Origin: a virus | Lineage: Duplodnaviria; Heunggongvirae; Uroviricota; Caudoviricetes | Direction: 5' to 3' (one strand) | Length of the DNA: 64,000 bases | Virus record (IMG/VR): IMGVR_UViG_3300035682_000015 | Shown here: piece after piece, positions 4,482 to 53,266 of the stretch | Layout of the letters: every line of letters begins with the position of its first letter | Numbering within the stretch: the stretch's first letter is position 1 | The notes under the pieces: generated by a model | Seen by the model: only the letters and a program-made list of their open reading frames with translations | The model's database searches: none | Told to the model about the DNA's origin: nothing | Position numbers and translations under genes: made by a program

Positions 4482-6086
4482 ATGAAATTAATTGAAAGTA
4501 TAAAACAAATCATTTCGGAGGCATCCAAGAAACAAATCTTAATGGATAAGATTAGGTTTAACGAGGAGAATGCTGACTTATTGGATACAATTTGTGGTCC
4601 ATTATCTGTTTGGATGGGAAATAAGTTTATTGATTTTTATTCAAAACGTTTAGAATCAGTACTCCCAGAATATGAAAACGAAAAAGATTATAGAAAGGCT
4701 GTGATTAGAAACCTTAATAACAATTTTGCGATTAATTCACATAGACAAGATATTGTATCAATAATGGATTGGATTAGAGTTGGTTTGAATGGTAATTTAG
4801 GTGAAAATAAAGAATTAAATTTAAATGAATTACATCATAAATCAAAAGAATGGCGCGATAGTTTAGAGATTGGTCAAGGTACTATTAACTATAAAGAAGA
4901 AAATCCAACTATATTAGATTTTACTGATGAGGACGGGAATGGATTCTATTGGGCGGATTTGAATACAAAGAACTCATCAGAGGAATGTGATAGGATGGGG
5001 CATTGTGGAAGAAGTTCTTATGGATATCTTTATTCATTAAGACAAAATATCCCTATTAATAACAAATATAAATTAAACAAATCGGTTCTAACTGCGGCAA
5101 TCGGTGAGGATGGTATTTTGTATCAATTAAAGGGTGTTAAAAACTCTAAACCAAAAGATGAATATCATCAATATATTCTTCCATTATTTTATGTGTTAGG
5201 TGGAGATGGTGAACAGGATGATTACTTGATTCAAGGATTTGGTAGTGAATACGCGTCAGACCAAGATTTTAAACTATCTGACCTACCGGAAGAAACAATC
5301 AAAGATTTATATCAAAACAGACCGGAGTTATTCTCATCAAGAACTATGCAGAGATTGTTAGGTAAGATGGGAATTGTGGATGTTCAACCACTCCCAACAA
5401 CATTTGTGTTAGAGGTTAGTCCGGATGATTTTAGTGATTATATTGATGGTGGAACTTACAGAACATATACCAATAGAACTACAGGGGTTAAAACAACAGT
5501 GAGTCTCTTTGTTGAGATAATGTCGGGTGATGCTTGGGACTTATGGAGTCAAGATAATTACGAAGATTTTGGGGGTTATTTCCAATATACAATAGACAAC
5601 CCAACAGAAGAAAAATTATGGTCAATTGTTAGAGGTTTTGCTCAGAGAGATGGTATTGAATTAGATGAGAATTTAGGTTTGGAAGATGCTATTGATGAAG
5701 TAGATAGTAATGGTGAAATTAAACTAGCGATTGGTAGTGCTATAAGTGATGCTGATGCTAACGATTATGTTGACCACTTACAAGATGAAATAAAATCGGC
5801 TTTAGAGTTTTACGGTAATGTTTATGAATTTAATGATACCGGAGCCAAAATACAAGTTGATTTAAGTAATTTTGTTAATATTGATGACGAAGAAATTGAT
5901 GAGATGTTTGAAAACAATATGAATAGAGATGGTAGTTATAATTTAGAGGGTGTTTTAAATGAATTATTATCTGAAGATATGGTTGAAAAACCTGATTTTG
6001 ACCCCGATGACCGCTGGTACCCTTCACCTGATTCTAGTGTTGTAAATGAAAATGTGAGATACAGATTAGATGATATTAGTATATGA
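4482..6086 (+). CDS. large acidic hypothetical protein
   Basis: 534 aa; preceded by terminator + GATATTTATA motif. Confidence 0.6.
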   Translation: MKLIESIKQIISEASKKQILMDKIRFNEENADLLDTICGPLSVWMGNKFIDFYSKRLESVLPEYENEKDYRKAVIRNLNNNFAINSHRQDIVSIMDWIRVGLNGNLGENKELNLNELHHKSKEWRDSLEIGQGTINYKEENPTILDFTDEDGNGFYWADLNTKNSSEECDRMGHCGRSSYGYLYSLRQNIPINNKYKLNKSVLTAAIGEDGILYQLKGVKNSKPKDEYHQYILPLFYVLGGDGEQDDYLIQGFGSEYASDQDFKLSDLPEETIKDLYQNRPELFSSRTMQRLLGKMGIVDVQPLPTTFVLEVSPDDFSDYIDGGTYRTYTNRTTGVKTTVSLFVEIMSGDAWDLWSQDNYEDFGGYFQYTIDNPTEEKLWSIVRGFAQRDGIELDENLGLEDAIDEVDSNGEIKLAIGSAISDADANDYVDHLQDEIKSALEFYGNVYEFNDTGAKIQVDLSNFVNIDDEEIDEMFENNMNRDGSYNLEGVLNELLSEDMVEKPDFDPDDRWYPSPDSSVVNENVRYRLDDISI

Positions 6087-6793
6087 ATTTAAGTAAAGAT
6101 TTAACGATAGTAATACCCTGCAAAAACGAGGGGTTAATCATAAAGAAAACTTTGGGGTTAATAAACCTGCAAAACAATATCAAAGGTGTAAATATTATTG
6201 TTGCCGATTCTTCTAATGACGATGGTTTTACACAAAAATGTATATTAAACTCGTCCAATACTAATATCAATGTAAAGATTGTTAAAGGTGGGTTCCCTGC
6301 TGAGGCCAGAAACAACGGAACCAAAAAGATAAAAACACCTTATGTTTTATTTTTGGATGCTGACATATACCTTAATGATTATGATTTGTTAAAAGATATG
6401 GTTGAGGTTATGAAAGAAAATGATTATCATTTATCGACAACTAAAATGAGAACTGACGATGGTGATTACAATTATGTATATAAATCATTTGATGTTATCC
6501 AATACTTAACCAAATTCTCCACACCATTTGCGGTCGGTGGATTTATGTTATTTAATTTAGAAATATTCAATTCATTGGGTGGGTTTAATCCGGATGACAA
6601 GTTCGCTGAGGATTATCATTTAAGTTCAAAAATAAAACCAAATAAATTTTATGTGTCAGACAAAATTGTTTATACCACATCAAGACGATTTAAGAACAAA
6701 GGTTTATTCTATATGGTTAAGATGATGATTAAATCTTGGTTTAATAGAAATAACGATGAGTTCTTTACAAAGGAACATAATTACTGGACATAA
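6083..6793 (+). CDS. family-2 glycosyltransferase
   Basis: IVIPCKNEG ... DADIYL (DxD) GT-A signature. Confidence 0.7.
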   Translation: MNLSKDLTIVIPCKNEGLIIKKTLGLINLQNNIKGVNIIVADSSNDDGFTQKCILNSSNTNINVKIVKGGFPAEARNNGTKKIKTPYVLFLDADIYLNDYDLLKDMVEVMKENDYHLSTTKMRTDDGDYNYVYKSFDVIQYLTKFSTPFAVGGFMLFNLEIFNSLGGFNPDDKFAEDYHLSSKIKPNKFYVSDKIVYTTSRRFKNKGLFYMVKMMIKSWFNRNNDEFFTKEHNYWT

Positions 6794-7512
6794 TGAAATA
6801 CAAAACAATAATTCTATCAGACATTCACTTGGGTTCCAAATCAAGTAGAGCCAACGATGTTATAGAATTTCTTGAAAACAACACCACAGAGACCTTAATT
6901 TTGAATGGGGATATCGTTGATGGTTGGGCTCTTAAAAGAGGTGGTAAATGGACTGAAAGTCACACCAAAGTATTAAGGAAGATAATGAAGATGAGTGAGA
7001 AGGGAGTGAATGTTATTTGGATTAGAGGAAATCACGATGAGTTCCTAAAAGATTTCATCCCATTCCAATTATCCAATCTAACAATCACGGAGGATTATAC
7101 CTTTACATCACTTGATGGTCGTAAGATGTATGTGTTTCACGGAGATGTGTTAGATGTGTTTATTACCAAAGCAAAATGGTTGGCTCACATCGGTTCGATA
7201 GGTTATGATATAGCGTTATGGATGAATAGAGTGTACAACAAATATCGTGAGACGAGAGGGTTACCTTATTATTCCATCTCTAAAGATATAAAGAATGGTG
7301 TTAAGAAAGCGGTTAACTTTATTAATGATTTTGAAGAGAATGCTGTGTTATTGAGTAAGAAAAAAGGATGTGATGTTGCTGTATGTGGCCACATTCATCA
7401 ACCGGAACTTAAAGAGAATTATATGAATAGTGGTGATTGGTGTGAGAATTGTACAGCTCTTGTTGAGACAAAAAAAGGTGTGTGGGAAGTTATTGAGTTT
7501 CACAAAAAATAA
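6793..7512 (+). CDS. calcineurin-like metallophosphoesterase, LpxH-like topology
   Basis: DIHLG, GDIVDGW, GNHDE, HGD, GHIH, NSGDW motifs in the order seen in UDP-2,3-diacylglucosamine hydrolase. Confidence 0.6.
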   Translation: MKYKTIILSDIHLGSKSSRANDVIEFLENNTTETLILNGDIVDGWALKRGGKWTESHTKVLRKIMKMSEKGVNVIWIRGNHDEFLKDFIPFQLSNLTITEDYTFTSLDGRKMYVFHGDVLDVFITKAKWLAHIGSIGYDIALWMNRVYNKYRETRGLPYYSISKDIKNGVKKAVNFINDFEENAVLLSKKKGCDVAVCGHIHQPELKENYMNSGDWCENCTALVETKKGVWEVIEFHKK

Positions 7513-14997: not shown

Positions 14998-15573
14998 ATG
15001 ATTGATATGAAATTAAACGAACAATTAACAAAAATTAAATCAATGATGGGAATCAATGAAAACAAACAATCTTATCCATACTCTTGTGCTATGTTATACT
15101 TTAACCCGGATTCGGTTACAGAACTACATAGTAAAATAAACCCGGAGGACCTATACACAGAAGAAGATGGGTTTGGTTTAGAACCGGAATCACACTGTAC
15201 GTTACTATACGGATTACACGATAATGAGGTTGATATTGAAGATATTATTAACGTAATAAACAAATACTCTTACACAAATTGTAAGGCACATAACCTATCT
15301 TGTTTTAACAATCCAAAGTATGATGTGTTAAAATATGATATAATGGGGGATAATCTAAGTGAAACTAATGAGGAGTTAAAACAATTCCCATTCACAAGTG
15401 ATTACCCGGACTATCACGCCCATATGACCGTGGCATATCTTAAACCGGGTAAAGGTAATCATTATATTAATATGTTGGGTGATGAATACAAAGAAATGGT
15501 AATGACACCTCAACACGCTGTGTATTCAAGAACTGATGGTACCAAACACAAAATACCGGTTAGGTTTACATAA
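14998..15573 (+). CDS. 2H phosphoesterase superfamily protein (LigT/Acb1-like)
   Basis: Two H-x-T-x motifs 76 aa apart: HCTLLYGL (aa 66) and HMTVAYL (aa 142), matching HxTLxFxG / HxT[LV]A of LigT-type 2H enzymes. Confidence 0.55.
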   Translation: MIDMKLNEQLTKIKSMMGINENKQSYPYSCAMLYFNPDSVTELHSKINPEDLYTEEDGFGLEPESHCTLLYGLHDNEVDIEDIINVINKYSYTNCKAHNLSCFNNPKYDVLKYDIMGDNLSETNEELKQFPFTSDYPDYHAHMTVAYLKPGKGNHYINMLGDEYKEMVMTPQHAVYSRTDGTKHKIPVRFT

Positions 15574-15646
15574 CAATCTAACTCAGATTTACAATTCGGG
15601 TAATACCTGAGGAGTAGGAGTGACGGTCAGGAAAGACTGACAACTT

Positions 15647-15799
15647 GGTCAAGTGGCGAAAATGGTAGACGATAAGCACAGTGCGTGTGTGAGAGTTGTG
15701 ATGTAAGCTGGGGTGTACAACCCGGAGATTCCAATTATGGATTCAGTGGCGAACGCAAATAGCCATTAACTCGTACAGGTTCGAATCCTGTCTTGACCA
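15647..15799 (+). tRNA. tRNA gene with ~65-nt insertion (candidate intron); type-II (Leu-like) D-arm; anticodon unassigned
   Basis: Perfect 7-bp acceptor stem GGTCAAG/CTTGACC. T-arm ACAGG-TTCGAAT-CCTGT. D-loop GGCGAAAATGGTAGACG. Discriminator A. 153 nt total. Confidence 0.55.
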
Positions 15800-15839
15800 C
15801 AAATATATAAAAAAAGTTTGGATATATAAAAAATAGTAT

Positions 15840-15847
15840 TATCTTTG
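15840..15847 (+). promoter_or_regulatory. -7 promoter element TATCTTTG (copy 1 of duplicated 47-nt promoter unit)
   Basis: Identical unit at 16246-16292. Confidence 0.5.
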
Positions 15848-15874
15848 TGCTCAATATTAATTAAAAAAAAGACT

Positions 15875-26105: not shown

Positions 26106-26876
26106 ATGAACGTATTAACAAACACTTTATTGGGGAACGATGTAATCATTGACATAATTGAAGGTCAAATGATTCTACATATTCCACATTCAAAAACAGA
26201 AATACCATTTTATGATGGATTTAATATGAATTATATTGAAAATGAGACCAAATTATTGGTTGATTTTGCTACTGATAAAATTTTTGACATCCCTAATGTC
26301 GAATCTCTAACTTTTGAGTATAATAGAATATTTTGTGACGTTGAAAGATTGGACGATAATGATGAACCATTATTTAATCTTGGTAGAGGTTTTTTTTATA
26401 CCAAAACTGATGACGGAAAAGACCTTAGAGTGTTAGATGATATGGTGAAAAAAAAGATTAAAGAAGAATTTTATGATATTCACCATAATAAATTGAATCA
26501 AATGGTTGAATATAGGTTGAATGAGTATGGTTGTGCAGTAATTATTGATTGTCATTCGTTTAGTGATATCCCATTTATAACTGATTTAGATAAAAGTGAG
26601 GTTAGACCGGACATTTGTTTAGGTGTTGATGATTTTCACACACCAAAATGGTTAATTAATCAAATTAAATCATATTTTGAATATCATAATTTATCTGTTA
26701 AAATAAATTCCCCGTACTCAGGGACAATAATTCCATTAAAATATTATAATAAAAACAAAAATGTTATTGGAATTATGATTGAGGTGAATCGAAAACTTTA
26801 TATGGATGAATTTATTGTTGATGATAATAAGGTTGATGAATTAAATTCTATTATTAAAAAATCTTTATTCATATAA
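26106..26876 (+). CDS. N-formylglutamate amidohydrolase-like zinc amidohydrolase
   Basis: HIPHS...IP and IIDCHS motifs reminiscent of FGase family; weak. Confidence 0.35.
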   Translation: MNVLTNTLLGNDVIIDIIEGQMILHIPHSKTEIPFYDGFNMNYIENETKLLVDFATDKIFDIPNVESLTFEYNRIFCDVERLDDNDEPLFNLGRGFFYTKTDDGKDLRVLDDMVKKKIKEEFYDIHHNKLNQMVEYRLNEYGCAVIIDCHSFSDIPFITDLDKSEVRPDICLGVDDFHTPKWLINQIKSYFEYHNLSVKINSPYSGTIIPLKYYNKNKNVIGIMIEVNRKLYMDEFIVDDNKVDELNSIIKKSLFI

Positions 26877-51951: not shown

Positions 51952-52125
51952 ATGGGACTTATAAATAATCTTTATGCTGTGTATGAAAAATCACCGGCAC
52001 ACGGGAGCAAAGAACATAATGTAATTTTGGCTCCTTTCAAAACTAAAGAAGAGGCAGAACAAAACAGAATTAAATACGGTTATAACACCGATAATTATTA
52101 CGTAGATATTTTGAAATATGAATAA
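51952..52125 (+). CDS. hypothetical small protein
   Basis: 57 aa, stop overlaps thyA start. Confidence 0.3.
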   Translation: MGLINNLYAVYEKSPAHGSKEHNVILAPFKTKEEAEQNRIKYGYNTDNYYVDILKYE

Positions 52126-53266
52126 ACTAGATAAACAATACACAGACCTTCTCCAAGACATTCTTGACAACGGAGTAACAAAACAAGACAGAACAGGTAC
52201 AGGGACAATCTCAGTATTCGGAAGACAAATACGTCACGATATGAAAGATGGTTTTCCTCTTTTGACTACAAAGAAAATGCCATTCAAAACAATCGTAACA
52301 GAACTTCTTTGGTTCTTACGAGGAGATACCAACATTAAGTTTTTGGTTGATAATAATTGTCATATTTGGGATGGTGATTGCTACAAATCTTATAAACAAA
52401 GTATTTTAGAATCCTTTGATAGATTATCAAATGACCCCGTAATAGATGCGATGCCACCTAGAATATTAACACAAGAAGAATTCACCAACAAAATCAAAAC
52501 AGATGATGAGTTTGCTAAGAAGTGGGGTGAGTTAGGTCCTGTGTACGGTAAGCAATGGAGAAAGTGGGGTTATGATAGTGATAAATGGAGAGAAGACTAT
52601 AACAAATTACAATTTGGTTCTAAAGAAGAAATTGAACACCTTAGTAAAAAAGGTATAGACCAAATCACAAACCTAATCAACGACCTTAAAACAAATCCAG
52701 ACTCAAGACGATTGATGGTTAATGCTTGGAATGTTGGAGAATTAGACCAAATGGTTCTTCCACCTTGTCATTATGGATTTCAAGTTTATACAAGAGAGTT
52801 GAGTTTAGATGATAGAAAAGATATTTGGAATAAAAACAATTTCAGTCAAGATATGTCGTGGCATAATATGGAAGAACACGATATTATGGATTTACTAAAC
52901 GATAATGACATCCCAAAACGAGCAATCTCTTTAATGTTTAATATGAGGTCAAATGATGTTCCATTAGGGCTTCCATTTAATATATCATCTTATGGTTTAT
53001 TATTAGAAATTATTGGGAAAATGGTTAATATGATACCTGACGAATTAATTACTAATTTAGGTGATGCTCATATCTATAAAAACCAAGTAGATGGTGTTAA
53101 AGAACAATTAACAAGGAAACCATTTGAATTACCTAAATTAGTTATGTCTAACCAAATTAATTTTAATGAAAGTGTTGCTGAATTTTTGAATAGTTGTCTA
53201 ATAACTGATTTTATTGTTGAAAATTATCAATCACATCCAACCATAAAAATGCCATTATCTAACTAG
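52118..53266 (+). CDS. thyA: thymidylate synthase family (ThyA, long-insert type); possibly pyrimidine hydroxymethylase
   Basis: DRTGTGT, ELLWFLRGDTN, LGPVYGKQWR, LPPCHYGFQ (catalytic Cys), DVPLGLPFNISSYG; L. casei-like small-domain insert plus extra ~35-aa insert. Confidence 0.8.
   Translation: MNKLDKQYTDLLQDILDNGVTKQDRTGTGTISVFGRQIRHDMKDGFPLLTTKKMPFKTIVTELLWFLRGDTNIKFLVDNNCHIWDGDCYKSYKQSILESFDRLSNDPVIDAMPPRILTQEEFTNKIKTDDEFAKKWGELGPVYGKQWRKWGYDSDKWREDYNKLQFGSKEEIEHLSKKGIDQITNLINDLKTNPDSRRLMVNAWNVGELDQMVLPPCHYGFQVYTRELSLDDRKDIWNKNNFSQDMSWHNMEEHDIMDLLNDNDIPKRAISLMFNMRSNDVPLGLPFNISSYGLLLEIIGKMVNMIPDELITNLGDAHIYKNQVDGVKEQLTRKPFELPKLVMSNQINFNESVAEFLNSCLITDFIVENYQSHPTIKMPLSN

Follow-up and report, generated by a model that had tools for sequence, protein, structure and literature searches.

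The stretch of viral DNA analysed here, 64,000 nt of the IMG/VR virus record IMGVR_UViG_3300035682_000015 (class Caudoviricetes; hereafter the window), carries at 15647–15799 on the + strand a 153-nt element in which the top half of a leucine tRNA is joined to a long lower half without an anticodon arm. Upstream of it, an open reading frame (ORF) at 14998–15573 encodes a phosphodiesterase of the 2H/Acb1-like kind, which just reaches the Pfam threshold (PF23474, 27.2 bits; cut-off 27) and also matches PHROG 755. The element has the same orientation as its flanking genes, no terminator was found between it and the Acb1-like gene, and a small leader hairpin, GUCAG-GAAAGA-CUGAC (15626–15641, +), preceded by GAC, ends 5 nt 5′ of the start of the RNA.

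Reading the element directly from the sequence, we found each part of a tRNA top half, all on the + strand. The 5′ strand of the acceptor stem, GGUCAAG (DNA GGTCAAG; 15647–15653), pairs in full with CUUGACC (15792–15798), which is followed by A73 (15799) and C74 (15800); the 3′ tail reads CAA, CCA not being encoded. U8, G9 and a Leu-type D-arm (GCG/AAAAUGGUAGA/CGA) fill 15654–15672, the D-stem consisting of two Watson–Crick pairs and a G10·A25 mismatch. Except for this mismatch the D-arm, GCG-AAAATGGTAGA-CGA at 15656–15672, has the form seen in bacterial tRNA-Leu. U48, the Levitt-pair partner of A15, lies at 15774, immediately before a canonical T-arm, ACAGG-UUCGAAU-CCUGU (DNA ACAGG-TTCGAAT-CCTGT; 15775–15791). 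The element thus matches canonical tRNAs in its 7-bp acceptor stem, in the GTTCRANNC loop of its T-arm and in the G18G19 of its D-arm, and at 153 nt it is far longer than the ~73–93 nt of such tRNAs.

Standard tools barely registered it. ARAGORN called no tRNA or transfer-messenger RNA (tmRNA) gene in the whole 64-kb window, and an Rfam scan of the same DNA at gathering thresholds returned nothing. In a permissive local scan the Rfam tRNA model reached 29.5 bits (cut-off 29, E = 2.7 × 10−4) by skipping 87 nt; this was the sole match, and the model aligned the acceptor, T-arm and D-arm with high posterior probability. The original prediction, made from the letters of this DNA, had proposed a 153-nt tRNA gene with a 7-bp acceptor stem, a Leu-type D-loop, a T-arm and no canonical anticodon stem, and our reading agrees with all of this: in none of the folds does a stem of 5 bp with a loop of 7 nt lie between the D-arm and the T-arm. 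The tRNA-finder check that it proposed came out negative, ARAGORN rejecting the locus with introns allowed or not. Its picture of a single insert of ~65 nt between intact halves must be given up, as the whole anticodon-plus-variable region (102 nt, 15673–15774) is non-canonical.

Predicted folds fill this region with other structures, again on the + strand. At the position of the anticodon arm, both constrained and middle-only folds place a short hairpin, GCACA-GUGCG-UGUGU (15676–15690), whose 5-nt loop is not an anticodon loop. At the position of the variable arm they predict an expanded, branched domain of 80 nt (15693–15772), closed by GAGUUG/UAACUC (15693–15698 with 15767–15772), and this closing helix stops 2 nt short of the T-stem (15772 versus 15775). 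The domain would contain three hairpins: CUGGG-GUGUACAA-CCCGG (15708–15725), whose loop holds the palindrome UGUACA, a motif that recurs in related elements; GA(U)UCCA-AUUA-UGGA(U)UC (15727–15744), which the unconstrained fold contains as well; and GUGGC-GAACGCAAAUA-GCCAU (15746–15766), which appears in the constrained and middle-only folds and whose GCCAUU pairs instead with the D-loop in the unconstrained minimum free energy (MFE) fold. The first of these had been noted earlier as GGGT-GTACA-ACCC (15711–15723); that hairpin is real, and is better drawn with the longer stem given here. The middle of the window element folds with z = −1.0 relative to dinucleotide shuffles, and its internal fold is a thermodynamic prediction, since no close homolog of this middle was found.

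A constant scaffold around unrelated middles

Relatives were collected by scanning viral and metagenome collections with patterns for the 5′ and 3′ parts of the scaffold. Degenerate patterns matched 44 loci (5′) and 22 loci (3′) in IMG/VR, and a broader 5′ pattern matched at least 120 metagenome contigs. Requiring at least 6 of 7 acceptor pairs and at least 4 of 5 T-stem pairs, we extracted 185 complete elements, of which 141 were distinct and formed a length continuum from 71 to 178 nt, plus two outliers. By comparison, the 24-nt pattern behind the 44 IMG/VR and at least 120 metagenome matches had one match in 185,579 bacterial and archaeal genomes (one per species), a 156-nt family member on a 41-kb contig of a metagenome-assembled genome. 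A DNA search with the locus and its 6-kb context against 50,697 GenBank phage records found no relative, and a scaffold chimera and two well-sampled subfamilies found no counterpart in cultured phages, matching only generic tRNA-Leu arms; one pattern match, in Tenacibaculum phage pT24, was not an oversized member. Given these counts, the family looks virus-specific and, thus far, confined to uncultivated genomes. Rfam 15 has no family of its own for these RNAs and we found no description of a GGUCARG tRNA-Leu-like family in the searchable literature, so that this is apparently a large, previously undescribed family of phage RNAs.

The shared scaffold reads GGUCARG-UG-GCGRAAWUGGUAGACGC ... U48-ACAGG-UUCGAAU-CCUGU-CYUGACY-A73-C74. 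With 46 of 52 positions identical to this consensus, the window copy falls inside the range of the family (41–52), and its deviations (A6-U67, A13, A16, A25 and C72) are each compensated or present in other members. Mean scaffold identity was 92% across ~100 lineages whose middles cannot be aligned. When pairs were counted over 71 distinct scaffolds, 98.4% of cells were paired and 55 cells had changes on both sides; none of 500 shuffles reached these values, and slid controls were 29–44% paired. The acceptor stem was 98.2% paired, with a G-C to A-U switch at 6:67 in 9 of 71 sequences, and the T-stem 99.4%, with double-sided changes in four of its five pairs, both figures being inflated by the extraction filter. 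The D-stem, which lies outside that filter, was 97% paired and showed a C-G to U-A switch.

Single-stranded positions were also retained. A14, A15, G18, G19, U20 and A21 are invariant, mostly within the search pattern, and the T-loop UUCGAAU is conserved. We regard U48, the Levitt partner of the invariant A15, as the most telling conserved position in these alignments: 94 of 98 clusters have U here, despite the hypervariable sequence next to it and without any constraint from search or extraction. A73 is found in 159 of 185 elements (81 of 98 clusters), the 3′ tail begins with C in ~174 of 185, CCA is encoded in just 5, and about half of the members have G1·U72.

Between these constant ends almost nothing is shared. 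The middles of 139 relatives fell into 105 unrelated sequence clusters and cannot be aligned between lineages. They nevertheless fold better than their dinucleotide shuffles (mean z = −0.74, P = 3 × 10−8, n = 76 clusters). A single helix encloses the entire middle in about half of the members, and in 38 of 98 clusters, the family mode, the last helix ends exactly 2 nt before the T-stem. For a 124-nt subfamily RNAalifold recovered a cloverleaf, in which the arm after the D-arm is supported by three double-sided compensatory pairs (ACAG/CUGU, CUAA/UUAG, ACAU/AUGU) and a big branched "variable arm" is closed by GGGU/GCCC, the same architecture as that predicted for the window. Only one motif, UGUACA, was enriched across unrelated middles (8 occurrences in 76 clusters against 1.9 expected, z = 4.4), and it lies in hairpin loops of the otherwise unrelated members L082, L128, L101, L013 and L047 and of the 124-nt group (L048 and others). 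A self-complementary loop of this kind could form kissing dimers or provide a site for a dimeric protein. Taken together, the folding and covariation signals argue that the lower half is under selection and is not junk, and the comparison of members shows a family that keeps the tRNA top half nearly unchanged while the anticodon and variable arms are replaced by structured, member-specific domains.

Several members depart from this plan in their own ways. Three (L004, ~6420–6480; L024, from 6107; L064, from 5387) carry 17–24-nt D-loop insertions before G18G19, so that expansion is not limited to the anticodon and variable region. In a 126-nt subfamily (L070, L095, L176, L021, L121) the segments CUGGAU...AUACAC...AUCCAG...GUGUAU occur in crossing order, suggesting a pseudoknot in the variable domain, and L121 has a compensatory change from CGGA/UCCG to CAGA/UCUG in a nearby hairpin. 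GATC, CATG and CTAG are each ~3 standard deviations rarer in the middles of the 76 clusters than in dinucleotide shuffles, which may be phage-wide avoidance of restriction sites rather than a property of the RNA.

Decoding capacity and leucine identity elements

An anticodon arm as recognised in decoding tRNAs (5-bp stem, 7-nt loop, U33, purine 37) was absent from every fold of the window element and from the ARAGORN output. With introns allowed, ARAGORN called 113 of 142 sequences and left the window copy uncalled; almost every amino acid is represented among the anticodons it assigned, Leu turning up about as often as expected by chance, and it placed the "introns" at positions 31 to 41. Because both anticodons and positions are arbitrary in this way, we regard these calls as forced fits. 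In the fold survey, anticodon-type loops (UUUAAGC, CUCAAAA) occurred in three bona fide tRNA-Leu genes of 84–85 nt and in none of the oversized members. A fourth true tRNA-Leu, L138, which brings the size range of these genes to 83–85 nt, has the loop UUUAAGC and the anticodon UAA, by direct reading and by ARAGORN alike. The T-stems of the true tRNA-Leu genes with the shared 5′ pattern are unlike the family's ACAGG/CCUGU. At the level of comparative sequence analysis, both the membership of this family and the absence of decoding capacity are shown for the window RNA.

Bacterial type-II tRNA-Leu is the known RNA closest in its top half, sharing the 7-bp acceptor stem, U8, a 3-bp D-stem with a GGAAUUGGUAGA-type loop, U48, the T-arm GGUUCGAAUCC and A73, and four true tRNA-Leu genes carry the family's 5′ pattern. 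The family differs from it in having no anticodon arm or loop, in a lower half of 40–120 nt that is unrelated between members and often branched, in lengths of up to 178 nt, and in acceptor and T-stem sequences that form a virus-only lineage.

The features held in common make up the complete published identity set of Escherichia coli leucyl-tRNA synthetase (LeuRS). This enzyme requires A73, the A15-U48 Levitt pair, G18G19, A20a and the tertiary pairs between D- and T-loops (PMC9976931); it requires neither the anticodon nor the long variable arm, still charges tRNA-Leu from which both arms have been removed, and needs the anticodon arm for editing only (PMC9976931). The window copy has A73, A15-U48, G18G19, A20a, U8:A14 and the nucleotides for G18:U55, G19:C56 and U54:A58, and these are conserved in the family. 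Since the conserved positions are those that LeuRS reads and the variable parts those that it ignores, the window RNA is probably leucylated by the host LeuRS.

Competing explanations and a proposed mechanism

We favour, with moderate confidence in the reading as a whole including its mechanism, a non-decoding tRNA-like RNA at 15647–15799 that belongs to a virus-specific family descended from type-II tRNA-Leu. Several observations weigh against it. Conservation of the LeuRS determinants could instead reflect the needs of RNase P, RNase Z and the CCA-adding enzyme for a type-II L-shaped core; G73, which in tRNA-Ser is an anti-determinant for LeuRS, is found in 14 of 98 clusters; and the LeuRS rules come from E. 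coli and Aquifex and are extrapolated here to probable Bacteroidota hosts. Scaffold conservation was partly imposed by the search patterns and the extraction filter. In the window copy itself, the D-stem contains the G10·A25 mismatch, and the unconstrained MFE fold (−47.4 kcal/mol) breaks the D-arm and is 4 kcal/mol better than the tRNA-like fold. Searches of IMG/VR and metagenomes yielded no close homolog of its middle, and a window-specific 5′ pattern had no matches. Nor did a partner protein emerge, no protein family occurring at more than 13 loci within 2.5 kb of the 185 elements.

Of the alternatives, the one that survives best, while remaining unlikely, is a regulatory small RNA built on a tRNA scaffold, whose top half is there only for processing and stability, base-pairing with a phage or host RNA being the task of the variable domain. 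It would account for a conserved scaffold with variable, structured cargo and for genomes that hold several paralogs with differing cargos, and in engineered systems tRNA scaffolds do stabilise foreign RNAs. It would not account for A73 or the exact Leu-type D-loop, which mere processing or stability does not need, and the longest perfect complementarity between the middle of the window element and the rest of the 64 kb is 11 nt, typical of shuffles.

It is less probable still that the element is processing "punctuation", a tRNA-like fold that recruits RNase P or RNase Z so that cleavage of the polycistronic transcript defines or stabilises the 3′ end of the Acb1 mRNA, the excised RNA itself having no role. 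The co-oriented flanking genes and the lack of a terminator after the Acb1-like gene suit this idea, as does the leader hairpin, which after an RNase P cut would form the 3′ end of the upstream mRNA. Such a function gives no reason for selection on large, covarying, lineage-specific lower domains and leaves arrays of 3–4 copies within ~1–3 kb unexplained, and some copies (L001/L170, L110, L150) have their own promoter-like box directly upstream.

The case for a functionless, decaying tRNA-Leu pseudogene, which we judge very unlikely, draws on the ARAGORN rejection, the D-stem mismatch, the disrupted D-arm of the MFE fold and the lack of the element at this locus in the closest relatives of the phage. 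Decay would strike all regions alike, whereas the scaffold is 92% identical over ~100 lineages with unalignable middles, U48 is kept in 94 of 98 clusters, the stems covary, the middles covary within subfamilies, and the scaffold deviations of the window copy all recur in other members or are compensated (A6-U67). A tRNA-like decoy or pseudo-tRNA had been among the options raised earlier for this locus: the comparative evidence supports a non-decoding tRNA-like RNA, and a decayed pseudogene is at odds with a conserved family under selection.

Two further options raised at that time, a small intron and an inserted element, would make the locus a true tRNA-Leu gene that yields a decoding tRNA once the extra sequence is removed after transcription; we give this even less weight. 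Its attractions are a top half that is a perfect tRNA-Leu, an Rfam tRNA model that reaches its cut-off when a large insertion is allowed, and the fact that bacterial tRNA-Leu(UAA) genes are a classic home of group I introns. Neither option stands up to the comparison. No anticodon-stem halves flank the extra sequence, and relatives show neither a fixed site between such halves nor a consistent anticodon; ARAGORN with introns skips the window, and in relatives its anticodons are arbitrary and its intron positions scattered from 31 to 41. Insert lengths form a continuum, and the D-loop is also expanded in L004, L024 and L064. The middles of 139 relatives form 105 unrelated clusters and thus are no copies of a single mobile element. 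With ~200 nt or more taken up by the core of a group I ribozyme (P3–P8), ~65–100 nt of extra sequence leaves no room for a self-splicing intron of this group, and the window scan matched no Rfam family of introns or ribozymes at E ≤ 10.

Least probable of all is a tmRNA-like or YrlA-like (bacterial Y RNA) molecule acting with SmpB or Ro60: the tRNA-like top half with a long helix in place of the anticodon arm does resemble the tRNA-like domain and helix 2 of tmRNA, Ro60 has tRNA-like partners in some jumbo phages (PMC7824862), and one relative (L003) adjoins a phage tmRNA, but the element has U3-A70 rather than the G3·U70 of alanine identity and a full Leu-type D-arm, ends within an acceptor stem and not a Ro-binding stem, and drew no tmRNA or YrlA match from ARAGORN or Rfam even at E ≤ 10. 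tmRNA, likewise non-decoding and aminoacylated, is further set apart by its lack of a D-stem, its pseudoknots, its tag ORF and its need for SmpB. YrlA, a tRNA mimic with equivalents of the D- and T-arms that is present in some phages, has a closed acceptor stem, ends in a Ro60-binding stem and is encoded beside Ro60 (rsr), whereas the acceptor stem of the window element is open and the ten larger window ORFs that were scanned contain no TROVE domain.

The nearest analogues that we found are RNAC and RNAD of phage T4 (species 1 and 2 stable RNAs), which are phage-encoded, lie at the end of a tRNA cluster and measure 119–139 nt; their function is still unknown (PMC3014915, PMC9697503). RNAC lacks an anticodon arm and has a canonical T-arm, CCGGG-UUCGAAU-CCCGG, that an acceptor-like helix closes; the T4 Acb1 gene (57B) lies ~1.4 kb upstream of the tRNA cluster. 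The family of the window element answers the same description, its members being phage-encoded, oversized, often located in tRNA clusters, and equipped with T-arm and acceptor helix but no anticodon arm, and the likeness is best taken as a functional analogy only. There is no sequence similarity between the T4 RNAs, which have no Leu-type D-arm, and the family beyond a generic T-arm, and RNAC carries a 45-nt 5′ extension and scores 17.5 bits against the Rfam tRNA-Sec model, compared with 29.5–40 bits for the family.

For the non-decoding tRNA-like RNA that we favour, we propose the following course. The RNA would be transcribed together with the Acb1-like gene, since no terminator intervenes, and RNase P would release it just downstream of the conserved leader hairpin. 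Its 3′ end would be trimmed and CCA added, after which the RNA would fold into an L-shape and be leucylated by the host LeuRS. Lacking an anticodon, it would read no codon and so would act through its charged or uncharged top half, which may engage tRNA-binding proteins while the lineage-specific bottom domain gives specificity.

What such an RNA might do is a matter of guesswork. We suspect a role in phage–host conflict, as suggested by the virus-only distribution, the paralog arrays, the hypervariability and the patchy presence among close relatives; one guess is that it vies with the type-II tRNAs of the host for a defence nuclease that attacks tRNAs. Defence nucleases are documented to act on the lower half of type-II tRNAs (PMC13096335, PMC11555353): Septu and retron-Eco7 nucleases cut the variable arm, and phage tRNA-Tyr resists cleavage or acts as a decoy or supplement (PMC13096335). 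The tRNA-Tyr of T5 and T6, set against retron-Eco7 and Septu PtuAB, resembles the present case as a phage type-II tRNA derivative whose variable-arm region is unlike the host's. It differs in being a functional decoding tRNA of normal size, whereas nothing beyond the part of a decoy or competitor would be open to the window RNA. A phage enzyme that puts charged tRNA to a non-ribosomal use is likewise known: Mom modifies DNA with the help of Gly-tRNA (PMC13219725). More speculatively, and here we are doubtful, phages of uncultivated lineages may field dedicated leucine-accepting, non-decoding mimics whose hypervariable, modular lower domains, some with self-complementary UGUACA loops, target different partners, either as decoys or inhibitors of tRNA-directed immune nucleases or, by analogy with Mom, as private aminoacyl donors in some non-ribosomal reaction; they would then form a new functional class beside tmRNA and Y RNAs.

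If RNAs of this family are stable and charged, they would represent widespread viral use of the tRNA top half, with RNase P, the CCA-adding enzyme, LeuRS and possibly EF-Tu, outside decoding, and they may shed light on RNAC and RNAD. A near-invariant scaffold with free cargo would also be a natural counterpart of engineered tRNA scaffolds. There is a practical consequence as well: tRNA finders miss such RNAs or, when introns are permitted, wrongly report them as tRNAs that contain an intron and have an arbitrary anticodon, an error that can corrupt both the tRNA inventories of phages and conclusions on codon usage or recoding.

Genomic context and the leader hairpin

The leader hairpin is not particular to the window. 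In many phage loci a motif tGAC-N5-G[GAAAGA]C-N5-AAnn (within 15620–15646 in the window) is found 3–6 nt upstream of the 5′ end of family members and of ordinary tRNA genes alike, and only a subset of family members has it. Over 23 distinct contexts we counted at least 11 covarying stem variants, including U·G pairs, around an invariant loop, G-GAAAGA-C. Sites outside the window are L006 4371, L007 2914, L045/L093 (two sites), L064 5829, L069 3505, L118 3815, L123 11433, L129 2534, L136 3286, L150 9048, L161 886, L162 and L175. No Rfam family matched the hairpin in the window or in the loci scanned, and it may serve as a signal for processing or stability or be bound by a protein. Because ordinary tRNA genes share it, its presence suggests that expression and processing of the window element belong to the phage tRNA-gene system.

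A conventional tRNA or tmRNA lies within 500 nt of 51 of the 185 elements. Fifteen loci hold two to four elements with differing middles, and all extra oversized matches at these loci were variants on the same scaffold. Promoter boxes of the Bacteroidota type (TAnnTTTG) adjoin several members and also lie downstream of the window element. Among neighbouring genes, those for DUF932, HNH and GIY-YIG/Seg-like proteins and for proteins of no known family recur.

The 2H phosphoesterase gene that the original prediction placed directly upstream is indeed there, with homology to T4 57B at the profile level only, and this adjacency does not extend to the family: just one or two other family loci have an Acb1-like gene next to them, and the four closest phage relatives (Acb1 80–88% identical in amino acid sequence; contigs of 115–322 kb) all lack the element at this locus. 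We found no close cultured relative of the window phage. Between the Acb1-like gene and the promoter that follows lies a variable hotspot (15574–15810 in the window, ~3560–3900 in the relatives L065–L068), with the leader hairpin and tRNA-like gene in the window, a small Cys/His-rich HNH-like ORF in L065–L067 and neither in L068. Downstream of it, a promoter-like stretch, TTTGG...TATCTTTG (window ~15817–15850), is conserved with L068 and fits the Bacteroidota −33/−7 consensus.

Some observations were made at the edge of these analyses. In L003 a phage-encoded tmRNA (992–1347; Rfam 77 bits) lies ~130 nt upstream of a 125-nt family member. Tenacibaculum phage pT24 (L002, LC168164) carries two 80-nt tRNA-Ile(UAU) genes (231–310 and 598–677) whose anticodon stems are apparently 8 bp long with one mismatch, and a 73-nt tRNA-like gene (394–466) with two acceptor mismatches whose T-arm and 3′ acceptor strand are as in the family. 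In the window itself, 52118–53266 encodes a 382-aa protein of the thymidylate synthase family, longer than a typical ThyA and possibly a pyrimidine hydroxymethylase. The window ORFs listed at 52118–53266, 26106–26876 and 6083–7512 have as their products this thymidylate-synthase-family protein, an N-formylglutamate amidohydrolase-like protein, a family-2 glycosyltransferase and a calcineurin-like phosphoesterase, a set that hints at nucleotide or DNA modification in a jumbo-phage-like genome.

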